From contig JBBRPR010000033.1 of NCBI GenBank assembly GCA_038227875.1, positions 1 to 64,000 on the forward strand: DNA of 64,000 nucleotides. The letters run 5' to 3'. The DNA comes from Planctomycetota bacterium. GTDB lineage: Bacteria > Planctomycetota > SZUA-567 > H5-PLA8. Positions 1 to 6,000 of this stretch are shown in pieces. A program made the position numbers. How positions within the stretch are numbered: the first letter of the stretch is position 1; every line of letters starts with the position of its first letter.

Positions 1-3000
1 CCGCCGCTCCGCCGCTATCGTCGCCGGCCGAGCTGGTGAGTGCGACCGACGCCGATAGCGACGGAGCAGCGGGGCTCGAGGGGAGCCCTGTTTTAGGAAA
101 AACTCTCATAACGGCTGGTACATAAAACGGGGGCAGGTCACGAATGGGCCATCTATCTGCTCGATCAAGCGGCGGCGAAGGCCAGCTTTACCTACTCAAT
201 TGTGAGCGGTACAGGTGGCAGGCATTACGGCTATCGCATTCGCCTTCTGGTGTCCGCACATAAGAAAGATGCCGCGCAACACGCGTTAAGTAAGTTTTGA
301 AATGAGACGTGGCGTCGGCTGATTGCCGACGCCACGTTTTTGACGATTGGATAGGAGGCCGAACTCAGACCGCGGCGGTTTTCTTGCCAATCGCCGGCAC
401 GGTGAACGCCTTTTTATCCCACACCAGCGGAAAGTGCTCGCCCTGCAATTGAGCGCCGTCGGCGACTTCGACGAATTTCTTCATGCAGTGTCCGCCGCTG
501 GCGACGTAGACGGTTTTTTCGGTCATGTAATGCACAGCCACCGCGCGGCGTGGACGGCCACGGGTGTTGGCGTGCGAGCCGTGCCAGGTCAAGCCGTGAT
601 GGTAGTGGACTTCACCTTTCTTCACCGGGCGCAGGACGATCTCGAGTTTCTTGCCGTCGAAAGTGGCGGGCATGTCTTTGAATTCCTTGAGCGTATGCAG
701 GAATTCGATGTTGTTGCCCCACAGATGCGAGCCGGGAATCATGCTCATGCAACCGTTGCCTTCGTCGACGTCATCGAGCGCGACCCAAGCGCTGACCTGC
801 TCGGTGATCGGTCCGATATTCGGCCAGTACGGCGCATCCTGATGCCACATGTTGACGCCGCCGTCGCCAGCGGGCTTGTATTGAATCTGATCATGCCAGA
901 CGCGCAGTTGCTTGGCGTCGGTCAGTTGCGCGACTTCTTCGACAATGGTCGGATTGGAGAGCAGTTCGCGGAAAGCGTCGCTGGCTTCCCAGATATTAAC
1001 AATCTGCCAGATCGGCGCTTTGGGATTCCAGTTGGAGATGCCGACGGGCTGCGGCACGTTGGGATTGTCCTTGTTCTCCATCACCCGCGTCAGATCGGCG
1101 CGCATCGCGTCGACTTGGGCGTCAGTGAGGACGCGACCGCTTTTTAGATAGCCTTTGGTTTTGAACTCTGCGACCTGTTCTTTCGTCAGCATTTTTCAGC
1201 AGTCCTTTTCAAATGGCAGTTTCGCCGCTCAATTCTGAATTAAACTGTACGCACAATACGCGGTCACGAGCGTCAGAAACATGGACGCACCGCTGAAAAA
1301 AGATGGACGAATCGTCGGGTGACGACCCTAAGGCCAGCTGGCCTTAGGTCGATTTCTCCCTTAGTGACTGCAGTCACGAAGGGAGAAGTTCGACCCGTCA
1401 CCGAAGGTCATGCAACAAGCATTTGCAGGCGGGACGCCTGCACCACAATTAACAGTGCACACGTTCCTTGTATGGCTCTGCGCTGAGCGGCCTTTCGACG
1501 AAGTCGAACGGCCAGTCGAAGGGTTAAATCTCTGCAAATTTTCAGTTTTGCGTCGACTCGGACTGGAAAGACTGCGGATGCCAATTACCTTTAAGCATTC
1601 AACGTGCATTTAGAAAAGTGGGCCGCGTGGCCAATCCTTTTTCTCAGGGGTGACGAATATGAGTGATAGCGCACAGGTACTGGGTTCGTACGGAACGGAA
1701 GCACAATCGGACAGTTTGCCGAGCCAGCCCTGCGTCATGCTGATTTTCGGCGCGTCCGGCGATTTGACCAAACGGTTGCTCGTGCCGGCGCTCTACAATC
1801 TCGCCTGCGACGGACTGCTGAACGAAAAGTTCGCGCTCCTGGGCACCGCGATGGACCCGCTGACGACCGAATCGTTCCGCGAACGCATGACCGCAGACAT
1901 CAAGAAATTCCACACCCGCAAGGAATTCGATCCGGTCATCTGGGAAAACCTGGTCAGTCGCTTCCACTACATGCAGGGCGGTTTCGCCGATCTGCCGTTC
2001 TTCCAGAATTTGAAAACCCAGGTCGCCAAGCTCGACGCGCAGTACAAGGTCGGCGGCAATGTGCTCTTCTACTTCGCGACCGCGCCGCGCTTCTTCGGGC
2101 TGATCTGCGACAATCTCCACAAGTCCGGCTTCAAAGATGGCGACGGCTGGAAACGCATCATCGTTGAAAAGCCTTTCGGCACCGATTTGAAATCCGCACT
2201 GCAGCTCAACAAGGAAGTGCTGGCCAACTGGAACGAAGATCAGATTTACCGCGTCGACCATTACCTGGGTAAAGAGACCGTCCAGAATCTGCTCGCGTTC
2301 CGCTTCAGCAACGGCATGTTCGAGCCGCTCTGGAACAAGAACTACATCGACAACATCCAGTTCAACGTCTCGGAAGCCGTCGACGTCGAAGGGCGCGGCG
2401 GTTATTACGATAGCTCCGGCGTGCTGCGCGACATGATGCAGAATCATATGTTCCAGATGCTGGCGTACCTCTGCATGGAAACGCCCGGCTCGTTCGAATC
2501 CGACGCGATCCGCAATGAAAAAGCGAAGCTGCTCCAGGCCGTGCGCAATTACACGCCGGAAGAAGTGGCGCGCTACGTCGTCCGCGGCCAGTACGGCCCG
2601 AACAAGAACGAGAGTGGTGAAGTGGTCAAGCCCGGCTACCGTCAGGAAAAGGACGTCAATCCGGAATCGAAGACCGAAACCTACGCGGCGGCGCGGTATC
2701 ACATCGACAACTGGCGCTGGGAAGGCGTGCCGATCTACCTGCGGTCCGGCAAGGCGCTCTCCAAGCGGGGTACGGAAATCATCGTGGAATTCAAGAAGGC
2801 TCCGGCGGTCATCTTCCGCGGCACGCCGGTCCGGCAGCTCAATCCCAACCGGCTGATTTTCCACATCCAGCCCTTCCAGGGCATCGAAGTGCAATTCCAC
2901 GCGAAGGTGCCGGGTCCGACACTGCAGCTCCAGCCGGTCAACATGCGCTTCAGCTACGGCGATGCGTTCAAGGCGTCGCGCTACACGGGCTACGAAGTGA

Positions 3001-6000
3001 TGGTCTATTCCTGTTCGCACGGCGACGCGACGCTCTTCTCGCGCGGCGACCTGGTGGAGGCGGCGTGGAAGGTCGCGCAGCCGATCATGGATTACTGGAC
3101 CGCCACGCCGGCCGATTTCCCGAACTACGCGCGCGGCAGCTGGGGCCCGAAGGTCGCGGCCGATCTGATCGAACGCGACGGGCGGCGCTGGTTTGAACTG
3201 ATCAGCGAAGAAGTGCTCAAGCGCGTGGACCTGTTCAAGGACGCCGATCCGCTGCTGCTCTCGCAGACGATCATGGCGCTGCGCCCGAGAATGGTCGGTG
3301 TGGGCGACGTGCTGATCAAGAAGGGCGATGTCGGCCGCGAGATGTACATGATCGCGCGTGGCGAAGTCGAAGTTGTCGACGATTACGGCTCGGTGTTGAA
3401 GACGCTGAAGGACGGCGATTTCTTCGGCGAAATCGGCATCTTGATGTCCAAGCCGCGCACGGCGACGGTGCGGGCGAAAACGACGTGCGATCTGTTCGTG
3501 CTGGACAAGGCGGATTTCAGCCGCATCCTGCGCGACCACCCGCACTTCGCCGCTCACGTGTTGGAAGTCGCCAAGCAGCGCTACGATTCGAGCATCAAGC
3601 CGGAACAGTTGCTCGCGTCGAAGTAAATCGAGAACGCGTGAATCCAACCAAAGCGGGAGGCGCAATGCGCCTCCCGGTTTTTTTCGCGTCATGTTCGAAG
3701 TGTTGATCTTTAACCATCAGGCCAATTGGCCTGAAGGTCCGCGCTACTTTGCAGAGCGCTCGACTTTGCCATCGGCGGTGATGCGGTATTCAATGGGCTT
3801 CTCTCCGCCGCTGACGGTGACGCTCTGAATCTTTCCGGCGTCGTCGGCTTTGACTTCCGCGGTGAGCTTGAACGCGGGCGCGCCGGTGGTGGGCTTCGGA
3901 GCCAACTCCACAAGCGTCACGGTGTAATGGACGGGCGTTTTCGAAACGGCGTGAAGGCCGGTGAGCGGGAAGTTGGTGTTGTACCATTTCGGGCCGTACT
4001 CACCGGGCACCTGCGTCGCGGTCTGGCCGCCGGGCAGGATCACGCGAATCCGCGACGCCAGCGCCGGTCCGCGAAAGTAGACGGCTTCGGCCTTCTCAGT
4101 ATCGATCTCAGCCGTGACGACTTTTGCCGCGTCGCCTTCCCACGGTTTCTTTGACTTCACGCCTTCGTTCTCGCGGCCGGTGACGCTGCCGTTGCCCCAC
4201 CAGCAGAGTTTCACGCGGCGGGCGTCGTTGAGGCGATCGACGATCAGGATGCAGGAATCGCCGGGCACGATGACCGTCCGGCGGTGCGCGGGCGTGGTCA
4301 TTTCCAGCACGCGGAATTCGCCGAGATCGTCCTTCACGGATTCCGCGCGCGAGAGGCGGTCGTGCGGACCGTACTCCTTGAAGACCGGCAGCACAAATTT
4401 GCCGCTGTCGCCCGGTTCTTCGACACAGAGCGTGTTGCGGTGCTCCCAACCGGTGAACGTATCGTTGACGGATTTGTTGGCGAAGCCTTTCGGACCGTAC
4501 GCAGGATCGACGAGCACGACTTCGCCGTCGCGGTAGGCGACGACTTCGCCGTTGTCGGAGTGCGTGTGCCCGCTGAGCGACGGCGTGCCGTCTTTCTCCA
4601 GCGGCGTTTCGAAATTTTTGGCGAAGACGGAGAGCGCTTTTTCGTTCTCGCCGGAAGTTCGCGCGACGCCGATGCCATCGTGCTTGATGCCCGCAATCAG
4701 CGGCAACGGCGGCGGCGCTTTGCCGTCGTTGAGTTCATCCAGAATGGGATGCGCCAGGAGCAATGAATGCGAGCGGATTTCGTTGCGCTTGACCGAGGCA
4801 ATCATCTCCGCGCGATCGGCGTCGGGATACTTGATCCACGCCGCCGCAAGCATGACGGGGACGGAATATTCATCGGGGTAAGTCCACGTATCATCGACGG
4901 GCACGCACGTCCACTCGGCCACCTTGTCTTTTCGTCCGGTCGGCGCGCACCAGATTGTGTGCGCGCGGCAGAAGCGCGAAATGGGGCCGCCGTCTTTCAG
5001 CAGGTTGAGCGGATCGTTGGGAAACGCGCGCGACCAGGCCACGCCAAACGCCAGACCGTACTCCACCCAGTAGCGCAGGTAGTGCGGGCCTTCGTAGTAA
5101 TTGCAGAATGCGCCGTCGCCGCGTGCCGGGCCGCCCCAGCCGTTAAGGTACTTCGGGAACAGATCGCGTAGCGCTTTCAGGCCATCAAGGTAGTCGTTGG
5201 ATCGGGGCGAGAATTGAGGTTCCTTTTCATACTGATCACGCAGCGACAGCAGGGCCAGACCGACGCCGGAGAATTCGCGCGAGTTCCAATTGTTGCCGAT
5301 TGGACCGGTGGCGTCTTTCCAGCCCTGATAGCTGCGGAGATGATTGACCAAAAGCCGCACCACGCCGTTGGAGAGCTTGTTGTAAAACAGCGCGAGATCC
5401 TCGTCCTTCAAACCCGCCGCGCGGACTTCCGGCGTCGCGAGCAGGTCGTAGGCGATGGCGTAATTCCACAACGAGACGCTGGCTTCGAGATAACGGTTCC
5501 ACTGGCCGGGTTTATTCGGCTCACCTTTGTCCGTGAGGAAATCGTACTTCATCAGTTCAGGCTCGGTGATCGCGCCGATAGCGCTGCGGATGGAATCGAT
5601 ATAGGTGGTCTTCTTCTCTTTCGGCGCGTGCGGGTATTCGCCGCTGGGATCAAGCCATGTAAGGATGGCGAGCTTCATCACCAGGTCGCTGCGTCGCTCT
5701 TCGTTGCTCTTGACCAGGCTTTCTTCGGCGCGGAATTCAAAGCGGTAATTGGCGAGCAGATTTTTGACCGGATCGGTGCTGTTCTTGTCTTCCGCGGTGG
5801 GCGTGAAGCTTGGTTTTCCCGGGGCGACCCGCTTGAGAATCGCGGTGCGATCCTCAGGGTTGTAAGTCAGCACGGGCCGCGCGAGCGAACCTTCCGGCGC
5901 TTCGCCGTCCTGAGCCGCGAGCGATGACCAGATTAAGCTCAACAGTATGGAAGTGTAGAAAATGCGGATCAGCACGGGTGAGAAAACTCCTCTTTATGGT

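Follow-up and report, generated by a model that had tools for sequence, protein, structure and literature searches.

A glucose-6-phosphate dehydrogenase with a fused cyclic-nucleotide-binding domain: a candidate for direct second-messenger control in a multi-phylum enzyme family

The window analysed here, 64,000 nucleotides of a Planctomycetota contig (JBBRPR010000033.1), encodes a glucose-6-phosphate dehydrogenase (G6PD) that continues without interruption into a complete cyclic-nucleotide-binding domain (CNBD). We propose, with a probability of roughly 0.7, that this protein is an accessory G6PD isozyme under the allosteric control of a 3',5'-cyclic nucleotide, most likely cAMP, with cGMP or both as possible ligands. 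G6PD sets the inflow of sugar phosphate to the pentose phosphate and Entner-Doudoroff routes, and its known modes of control are NADPH, redox (thioredoxin, OpcA), modification, and transcription through CRP. The fusion joins known G6PD and CNBD parts in a combination for which targeted literature searches found no description.

Results

The fusion gene and its family

The features of the gene are collected in Table 1. In agreement with the survey's finding, which had pointed to one of four zwf paralogs as carrying a complete cNMP domain, the genome has four G6PD_C matches, and Pfam assigns to the 655-residue product G6PD_N at residues 29-210 (E 2.6e-60), G6PD_C at 212-511 (E 2.5e-112) and cNMP_binding at 549-627 (E 1.1e-20). 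The zwf equivalog TIGR00871 is matched with 580 bits, above the cut-off of 400.6, and core identity between the fusion and the three plain paralogs is 42-44%. The ATG at 1659 was preferred over the GTG at 1650 because the modal homologue length is 655 residues. The gene is probably monocistronic; its neighbours in the window, a PhyH-family gene and an unannotated ORF, neither of them opcA, lie on the minus strand. Terminator-like sites numbered 4 versus 3.7 in shuffles, and it is position alone that argues for the hairpin behind the gene. A sigma-70 promoter scan gave no match, and no RNA family exceeded chance level in positions 1-5000 of the window. As contigs of all three sequencing runs examined, from two studies, bridge the junction near nt 3195 (the best run may be the source of the window), the fusion is not an assembly chimera.

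Table 1. Features of the fusion gene, with positions in the window.
Feature	Position	Strand	Basis
Shine-Dalgarno-like site AGGGGTG	1646..1652	+	6 nt ahead of ATG at 1659 (sequence)
zwf-CNBD fusion gene	1659..3626	+	single open frame, 655 aa; Pfam, TIGR00871
Rossmann coenzyme domain (G6PD_N), residues 29-210, intact GASGDL motif	1743..2288	+	Pfam, conservation
Leu40 for usual Lys (Leuconostoc Lys21), family mark	1776..1778	+	Leu in 236/238 fusions; Lys in 106/124 plain enzymes
Met65-Asp66 at coenzyme-selecting position (Leuconostoc Arg46, P. putida R49)	1851..1856	+	alignments; rule from the available part of PMC8546961
RVDHYLGKE motif, predicted G6P binding and catalytic dyad Asp (Asp200, His201, Tyr202, Lys205)	2250..2276	+	invariant in 238/238
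G6PD C-terminal beta/alpha domain, residues 212-511 (Glu239, Asp258, catalytic His263, Lys365, Arg370, Gln404)	2292..3191	+	Pfam, conservation
Ser368, Trp in 237/238 family members	2760..2762	+	alignment; second database record P0002 also Ser
Family signature KASRYTGYEVM, residues 438-448, loop and start of helix alpha-m	2970..3002	+	near-invariant in 68 fusions, differs in 124 plain enzymes
Junction of 16 residues (Trp511-Phe526) lacking a flexible linker	3189..3236	+	length 16 in 237/238
Complete CNBD, residues ~516-642 (Pfam core 3303-3539)	3204..3584	+	Pfam; model pLDDT mostly 80-88; fold match
Phosphate-binding cassette FGEIGILMSKPRTA (Gly590, Glu591, Arg600, Thr601)	3423..3464	+	G, E, R in 238/238; Thr601 in 205/238
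Arg641, putative C-helix lid, 41 residues past cassette Arg	3579..3581	+	238/238, fixed span; spacing as MloK1 307 to R348
Intrinsic-terminator-like hairpin with T run	3654..3686	+	position after gene

That the architecture is a conserved family across phyla, as had been stated before, could be substantiated. In a species-level genome collection, 109 places carry the fusion and fall under nine phylum labels, all 120 listed junction matches (of 781 at E<=0.001) contain both G6PD_C and cNMP domains, and the names include Planctomycetota, Phycisphaerales, Blastocatellia, Acidobacteria, Rokubacteria and Methylomirabilota. The reported full-length orthologs with 75-80% identity in 7 of 19 same-order relatives were likewise recovered, while in 21 further genomes of the class no fusion was found. 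All 80 listed record titles of carriers denote metagenome-assembled genomes, and no cultured carrier is among the named matches listed. The junction region had no match in a plasmid collection at E 1e-25. In a tree with plain enzymes, of which no examined representative is more than 49% identical to the fusion, all 68 fusions form a single clade (support 1.0, stem 0.53).

When the enzyme signature motif was used as probe, the CNBD lay directly behind it at 78 of 80 flanked loci, the other two ending at a contig edge, so that it was absent in none; in three of the 78, frameshifts or a stop interrupt the CNBD region. Selection acts on both halves, and for the CNBD it is purifying, with dN/dS of 0-0.26 across 16 pairs (identical values in two of them), although mean pairwise identity within the family is lower for the CNBD (58%) than for the catalytic domain (77%). 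Stand-alone CNBDs were considered as well: 120 short matches were listed, mostly from short contigs, 38 of them keep a G6PD tail, and eight of the nine that were read look like pieces of fusions, so that these matches yielded no genuine split form.

An intact catalytic set and a complete CNBD

The G6PD motifs are all present (GxxGDL G31-L36, EKPFG E170-G174, DHYLGK D200-K205, D258, H263), and the catalytic residues are kept in all 238 full-length homologues, a set equivalent, at 80% identity, to about 49 effective sequences. The protein is thus predicted to be a G6PD isozyme with an intact catalytic set that oxidizes glucose 6-phosphate (G6P). Relative to plain enzymes, the family has changes near the cleft at Asp242, Val447, Met448 and Ser451.

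For the CNBD, PF00027 scores 73.9 bits against a cut-off of 27.5, and the best solved sequence matches are domains of PKA, PKG, SthK, CNG and HCN proteins. The modelled domain aligns to those of CNGA1, HCN4 and SthK with an rmsd of 1.6-1.9 A and Z scores of 15.9-17.9. G590, E591, R600, A638 and R641 are invariant in 238/238 homologues, and Leu541, Tyr563, Arg567, Arg622 and Asp626 in the N-terminal and hinge helices are invariant or nearly so. The lid role of Arg641 is assigned by its spacing, which is that of MloK1 R348, not from a ligand-bound structure. Thr601 and Lys/Arg581, which we take to be PKG-type cGMP selectivity positions, are cGMP-compatible, and residue 645 is N, A, T, V, K, D or S, with no fixed Asp. 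According to the available part of PMC4076524, affinity in MloK1 depends mainly on the lid Arg (R348A, Kd ~25 uM), and general rules for cAMP/cGMP selectivity are weak. Taken together, the domain appears canonical, with intact pocket and lid, and is predicted to bind cAMP or cGMP. A CRP/Fnr-type helix-turn-helix is absent, as the chain stops 13 residues past Tyr642, and PRK11753 gives 38.7 versus 266 bits.

The AlphaFold2 monomer of the fusion is of moderate confidence (pLDDT 76, pTM 0.69; segments 201-204, 366-369, 417-422 and 433-442 under pLDDT 50) and has no interface read-out. A complex prediction of the enzyme core with the CNBD and cAMP scored 0.00 and carries no weight either way, and a CNBD model folded from the single sequence was of poor quality (pLDDT 54.5) and left unused.

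The junction and the OpcA surface

The CNBD is joined near-rigidly to the enzyme's last strand, and the fusion has one origin. At the place of attachment, Arg510 and Glu513 occupy the alignment columns of Arg505 and Arg508, through which Synechocystis G6PDH contacts OpcA, and the available part of PMC11648896 describes that OpcA docks at these residues, moves relay helices alpha-f' and alpha-a as well as alpha-m and its loop, stabilizes the tetramer, and occupies the site of the structural NADP in the human enzyme. A comparison of 68 fusions with 124 plain enzymes placed family-diagnostic positions 40, 50, 389, 438-448 and 492 in OpcA contact or relay elements. The alignment thus suggests that the CNBD sits where OpcA docks on the cyanobacterial enzyme and that family-specific invariant residues fall in the elements that OpcA moves. 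Other diagnostic positions (85-87, 242, 368, 402, 407, 410) lie outside the named elements. A long stem branch could fix residues anywhere in an enzyme, which weakens mappings of this kind. OpcA itself was not among the 266 scanned neighbour ORFs (of 283 picked) of fusion loci, and the opcA of this genome adjoins another zwf.

Coenzyme and metabolic context

An Arg at the end of strand beta-2 binds the 2'-phosphate of NADP, and this is the basis of the coenzyme rule given in the available part of PMC8546961. This Arg is absent in the present copy, which has Met65-Asp66, and present in 100/238 family members (~40%). The tree requires at least three changes at this position within the family, with a backbone so poorly resolved that gain and loss cannot be told apart. 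This copy probably uses NAD or has relaxed specificity, and it may not supply NADPH; from the residues at this position, acceptance of or even preference for NAD+ is likely. The Arg rule as such predicts relaxed specificity and not NAD preference. At three related Myxococcota loci, a fusion of the x-Asp type is paired with a gnd that bears Asp-Ala for the usual Asn-Arg.

As 47 of 50 fusion-bearing genomes have a second G6PD_C match, and as this copy has Met65-Asp66, the fusion is best regarded as an accessory isozyme and not as the main NADPH gate of the cell. The earlier proposal of a direct second-messenger control of the oxidative pentose phosphate pathway can therefore be upheld in its first part, for which the invariant pocket, the lid Arg, the fixed junction and the attachment at the OpcA site make the protein a strong candidate, whereas the naming of the pathway needs a qualifier.

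No conserved operon was found across fusion loci. Clear sugar-metabolism neighbours occur at only ~16/80 loci, which belong to few independent lineages and lack a background rate; the informative ones are gnd, pgl, pgi, glk and edd/eda. One Sulfuriflexus locus has the order gnd-zwf-pgl-(tandem-CNBD protein)-pgi followed by the fusion on the same strand, facing glgB/glgC. An Entner-Doudoroff route could not be established for the present genome, in which the best edd- and eda-like matches are only 31-33% identical. Class III cyclase matches number seven in this genome and occur in 49/50 fusion-bearing genomes, a weak association, since cyclases are common in such genomes and the count has no matched control. 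A ferredoxin-cyclase-peroxidase was considered as dedicated partner cyclase, but it is full-length in only 2/50 fusion-bearing genomes and 1/19 relatives and thus is no general partner.

Discussion

How could a tethered CNBD control the enzyme? The nucleotide would bind to Gly590, Glu591 and Arg600 of the cassette, and the C-helix would close over it via Arg641. Ligand binding would then shift the N-terminal and hinge helices of the CNBD (Leu541, Tyr563, Arg567, Arg622, Asp626) against the OpcA-type surface, which would comprise the C-terminus at 510-513, helix alpha-o, loop 387-395 and hairpin 316-320. As in the case of OpcA, the movement might be passed on to helices alpha-f' and alpha-a and to alpha-m together with its loop, thereby altering the affinity for G6P. 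As to the direction, other CNBD proteins and the sugar-mobilising neighbours weakly favour activation by the ligand over inhibition. In this host, a rising messenger could then open a catabolic hexose phosphate route via NAD+, while two Arg-type paralogs would supply NADPH. A more far-reaching scenario has, in our view, an even chance of being correct: the tethered sensor, by which cAMP or cGMP directly gates the enzyme, would have come to occupy the OpcA/structural-NADP site and passed laterally among soil and aquatic phyla, after which the coenzyme would have shifted between NADP and NAD at least twice; according to its host, a single messenger would then promote either the supply of NADPH or the catabolic oxidation of glucose; here, the ferredoxin-cyclase-peroxidase could feed in a redox-linked cAMP signal.

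Which other explanations could account for the fusion? The CNBD might bind its nucleotide without tuning catalysis and instead stabilize the oligomer, localize the enzyme or recruit a partner, as a built-in structural substitute for OpcA or the structural NADP. OpcA too stabilizes the tetramer, at the structural-NADP site of the human enzyme (PMC11648896, available part), and no interface was read from our model, but a lid Arg and a hinge that are invariant point to a movement driven by the ligand, which the fixed 16-residue junction would transmit, and we therefore consider this reading unlikely. Slightly less probable still is an allosteric CNBD with a ligand other than cAMP or cGMP, such as AMP/ADP, another cyclic nucleotide or a metabolite. 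Some CRP-family proteins do bind other ligands, and the selectivity positions 645 and 601 vary. The weakness of general selectivity rules (PMC4076524, available part) also leaves room for this, but the canonical contacts to ribose and cyclic phosphate and the lid Arg are all invariant, and the closest solved domains are those of PKA, PKG, SthK, CNG and HCN proteins.

The messenger would not gate G6P oxidation if the enzyme half were only weakly active or a dehydrogenase that has diverged towards another sugar phosphate, which is improbable. The equivalent of Lys21, a G6P-binding residue (PMC13189197, available part), is lost, the cleft residues named above have changed and the stem branch is long; nevertheless, the remaining substrate and catalytic residues are invariant, TIGR00871 is passed, the G6PD of Zymomonas likewise lacks that Lys and has Met there in the alignment, and the informative neighbours encode gnd, pgl, pgi, glk and edd/eda. 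That the fusion is a chance product of mis-assembly or read-through, or carries a decaying passenger domain, could be suspected from the exclusively metagenome-assembled named carriers, but this idea is refuted by hundreds of independent records, the junction bridged in three runs, the purifying selection and the invariant pocket, and its probability is negligible.

If the allosteric switch by a cyclic nucleotide is correct, it would couple a second messenger to the G6PD step within seconds and without gene expression. The apo and ligand-bound pair would then be a clean handle on an allosteric site that OpcA and the structural NADP of the human enzyme have in common, and a dehydrogenase dependent on cAMP could be used as biosensor or as tunable NAD(P)H valve. 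Databases name the fusions as plain G6PD, and the regulation is therefore invisible in annotation.

In comparison with known systems, the fusion shares with bacterial Zwf (TIGR00871; Synechocystis 9emm/9emn, Zymomonas 7xhp, Leuconostoc 1dpg) the fold (Z 38.7 to 1dpg), the catalytic His-Asp pair and the G6P-binding residues, but differs by the extra 140-residue CNBD, the missing NADP Arg in this copy and the Leu in place of the Lys21 equivalent. With the CNBDs of SthK, MloK1, HCN/CNG, PKA and PKG, it has in common the cassette G-E...R-T/S, the hinge and the C-helix lid Arg (for SthK, identity is 39% and the rmsd 1.6 A), whereas the effector is a soluble metabolic dehydrogenase instead of a channel or kinase. 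A CNBD in one chain with an effector that does not bind DNA is also found in the mycobacterial acetyltransferase Pat (NF058543), which is activated by cAMP, and in the family 2B encapsulin (NF041163); in both cases only the CNBD matches, far below the cut-offs (51/460 and 40/400 bits), and effector and domain order differ. P. putida, with its isozymes A, B and C, likewise has more than one zwf in its genome, with differences between the copies at the coenzyme Arg, but these isozymes have no sensor domain; the main text of PMC8546961 does not use the word "fusion". In case of the cyanobacterial G6PDH-OpcA system, finally, the regulator acts at the same C-terminal allosteric surface, but OpcA is a separate redox sensor with a disulfide, according to the available part of PMC11648896, whereas the sensor of the fusion is a covalently attached nucleotide-binding domain.

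The fusion protein, its gene and its surroundings

The fusion of glucose-6-phosphate dehydrogenase (G6PD, zwf) with a C-terminal cyclic-nucleotide-binding domain (CNBD) is a real, conserved variant of a textbook enzyme: its gene is a single reading frame, its product passes the zwf equivalog threshold, and the junction is bridged by contigs from three sequencing runs of two studies. Both parts are already known and CNBD-enzyme fusions exist, while this combination is apparently undescribed; we found no published account of a G6PD/zwf-CNBD fusion in a search that left most subscription journals and supplements outside and whose matches, judged by titles and the openings of abstracts, deal with other subjects; a mention in a domain survey is possible. 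In sequence databases the members are named plainly G6PD, and ESM Atlas clusters with the same three domains carry automatic G6PD names.

As the survey's finding had it, the genome holds four G6PD genes, and the three plain enzymes (lacking a CNBD), put there at about 45% identity, are 42-44% identical to the fusion core. opcA, encoding the separate G6PD regulator, adjoins one of these three. The fusion gene appears to stand alone, since both neighbours lie on the opposite strand and a terminator-like hairpin follows it. One codon specifies Ser where the other 237 of 238 aligned full-length homologues have an invariant Trp; one close record shares this Ser, which is therefore probably a real lineage change.

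Features of the window and of related loci (L, locus; G000, the window's genome; C, contig)
Feature	Location	Strand	Description
Fusion gene	window 1659-3626	+	655 residues
G6PD_N	residues 29-210		Pfam
G6PD_C	residues 212-511		Pfam
cNMP_binding	residues 549-627		Pfam
Ser codon	window 2760-2762		Trp in other homologues
ORF	window 3744-5975	-	743 aa, signal-peptide-like start, no Pfam match
ORF	window 7522-8778	+	418 aa, signal-peptide-like start, no Pfam match
Large repeat protein	window 9291-12773	+	PQQ/BamB-like beta-propeller
Large repeat protein	window 13369-16275	-	PQQ/BamB-like beta-propeller
OpcA-linked zwf	L002:1492-3063 (G000:C21)		plain G6PD
Cyclase fusion	L130:1600-3294 (G000:C37)		ferredoxin-adenylate cyclase-haem peroxidase
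Hexose-phosphate cluster	L126:203-14288 (also L038, L077)		gnd-zwf-pgl-(tandem-CNBD protein)-pgi-fusion, one strand, facing glgB, glgC and a GH57 gene

Distribution and ancestry

As the survey's finding also had it, orthologs of 75-80% identity occur in 7 of 19 same-order relatives, with the unpublished G017 counted as a miss; in 21 remoter members of the class no fusion turned up (genomes 61-95% complete). In two homologue searches, returning at least 120 proteins each, G6PD_C and the cNMP domain were present in all 120 listed for each. The exact enzyme-half motif pattern, which undercounts fusions, matched at 109 places in 185,579 species genomes under nine NCBI phylum labels, in agreement with a cross-phylum family: Pseudomonadota 30, Myxococcota 21, Verrucomicrobiota 16, Acidobacteriota 14, Planctomycetota 13, Methylomirabilota 6, Rokuibacteriota 5, Bdellovibrionota 2 and Bacillota 2, these being labels of MAGs, some of which may be wrong. 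The CNBD directly follows the enzyme in 78 of 80 flanked loci, and the other two end at the contig end. Five fusion copies (L008, L013, L027, L073, L080) are broken by frameshifts or a stop, with multiple interruptions in a single gene, which points to assembly errors.

Among representatives clustered at 50% identity, a profile search returned one full-length fusion at 1318 bits, the next match scoring 638. In a FastTree tree of 68 full-length fusions and 49 plain enzymes, built without fragments and frameshifted copies, the fusions group as a single clade (support 1.0, stem 0.53), within which single-phylum lineages are scattered in several places; this fits a single origin followed by sideways spread, on a weakly supported backbone. 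The window copy clusters with Planctomycetota-labelled sequences at low support. As 47 of 50 carrier genomes have at least a second G6PD_C match (a few being fragments), the fusion is an accessory isozyme.

No conserved operon surrounds the fusion across the flanked loci, where 266 of 283 picked neighbour ORFs were scanned. Sugar-metabolism neighbours (glgB, pgi, gnd, glucokinase, pfk, a GH63-like hydrolase, edd/eda, plain zwf) occur at about 16 of 80 loci, and one Sulfuriflexus locus carries gnd, zwf, pgl, a tandem-CNBD protein, pgi and the fusion, then glgB and glgC, in an order that is similar in one relative. These neighbours suggest glucose or glycogen mobilisation in a few lineages. The tandem-CNBD protein of the L126 cluster (roughly 300 aa, without further Pfam domains) is, judged by its domains, a putative second reader of cyclic nucleotides within a hexose-phosphate cluster. 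In six Methylophilaceae loci (L010, L018, L024, L039, L058, L066), msbA-lpxK-kdsB precede the fusion on one strand.

Enzyme half and coenzyme choice

The enzyme half looks active by its residues: K171, D200, H201, Y202, K205, E239, D258, H263, K365, R370 and Q404 are invariant in the 238 homologues (about 49 effective sequences), and the predicted model matches solved G6PDs. In 236 of 238 homologues, Leu replaces the equivalent of Leuconostoc Lys21, described as G6P-binding (PMC13189197); Zymomonas G6PD, with Met at this position, likewise lacks the Lys.

Where the Arg binding the NADP 2'-phosphate is expected, the window copy has Met followed by Asp. Without this Arg, affinity for NADP falls (PMC8546961), and the neighbouring Asp would favour NAD. 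Across the 238, the position is split into Arg (100), x-Asp (106) and other (32), and the tree implies at least three changes. Two plain paralogs of the window's genome keep the Arg; the OpcA-linked zwf also lacks it (Ala-Met-Gln), as do all five complete Methylophilaceae fusion copies. In three related Myxococcota loci, an x-Asp fusion lies near a gnd with Asp-Ala for the Asn-Arg of solved enzymes, and at one locus with an Arg-type fusion gnd keeps Asn-Arg, a pairing that amounts to one or two events; we take this motif to bear on coenzyme choice. The long-type 6-phosphogluconate dehydrogenases near x-Asp fusions at L037, L040 and L053, with Asp-Ala after strand beta-2, are candidate NAD-type enzymes.

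Sensor half and proposed mechanism

By sequence and model, the sensor half appears to be functional. G590, E591, R600, A638 and R641 are invariant (238/238) with a fixed R600-to-R641 span, the modelled CNBD superposes on those of the channels CNGA1, HCN4 and SthK at 1.6-1.9 A, and its dN/dS is 0-0.26 over 16 pairs (two with identical values, one further pair skipped). Thr601 is compatible with cGMP, as is the basic residue 581, which presumably contributes to selectivity; residue 581 aligns with an Arg of Plasmodium PKG, though Lys also occupies this position in a PKA domain. The window's genome has seven class III cyclase and 12 CNBD matches, and a cyclase is present in 49 of 50 carrier genomes, a count made without a matched control of fusion-free genomes. 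Full-length matches to the ferredoxin-cyclase-peroxidase protein occur in three other genomes (G009, G060, G079), all fusion carriers, two of them by selection; most carriers lack it.

The regulatory hypothesis that follows is well-founded and cheap to test. Trp511 to Phe526 spans 16 residues in 237 of 238 homologues, and the sensor would therefore sit hard against the last strand of the enzyme. Forty positions are nearly invariant in 68 fusions and rare in 124 plain enzymes; many lie in elements linked to OpcA (alpha-a positions 40 and 50, nine positions within 438-448, and 389 and 492; helix names assigned by homology), others outside them (85-87, 242, 368, 402-410). Activation by the ligand is slightly favoured over inhibition, roughly 60:40.

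Two known systems offer a comparison. In the channel MloK1, the cassette Ser 308 and the lid Arg 348, the main determinant of affinity (PMC4076524), have the same spacing as in the fusion CNBD. The fusion family has no fixed Asp at the equivalent of MloK1 position 352. In Synechocystis, redox-sensing OpcA binds G6PDH via Gln386, Glu496, Arg505, Arg508 and Trp312-Gly315, at the structural NADP site of the human enzyme; it shifts helices alpha-f' and alpha-a as well as alpha-m and its loop, and raises G6P affinity about tenfold (PMC11648896). These contacts correspond in the fusion to Gln393, Ala501, Arg510, Glu513 and 316-320 (using the deposited chain's 23-residue offset). On this inferred mapping of contacts and family-diagnostic positions, the CNBD probably acts at this site as a tethered stand-in for OpcA, reporting cyclic nucleotide instead of redox.
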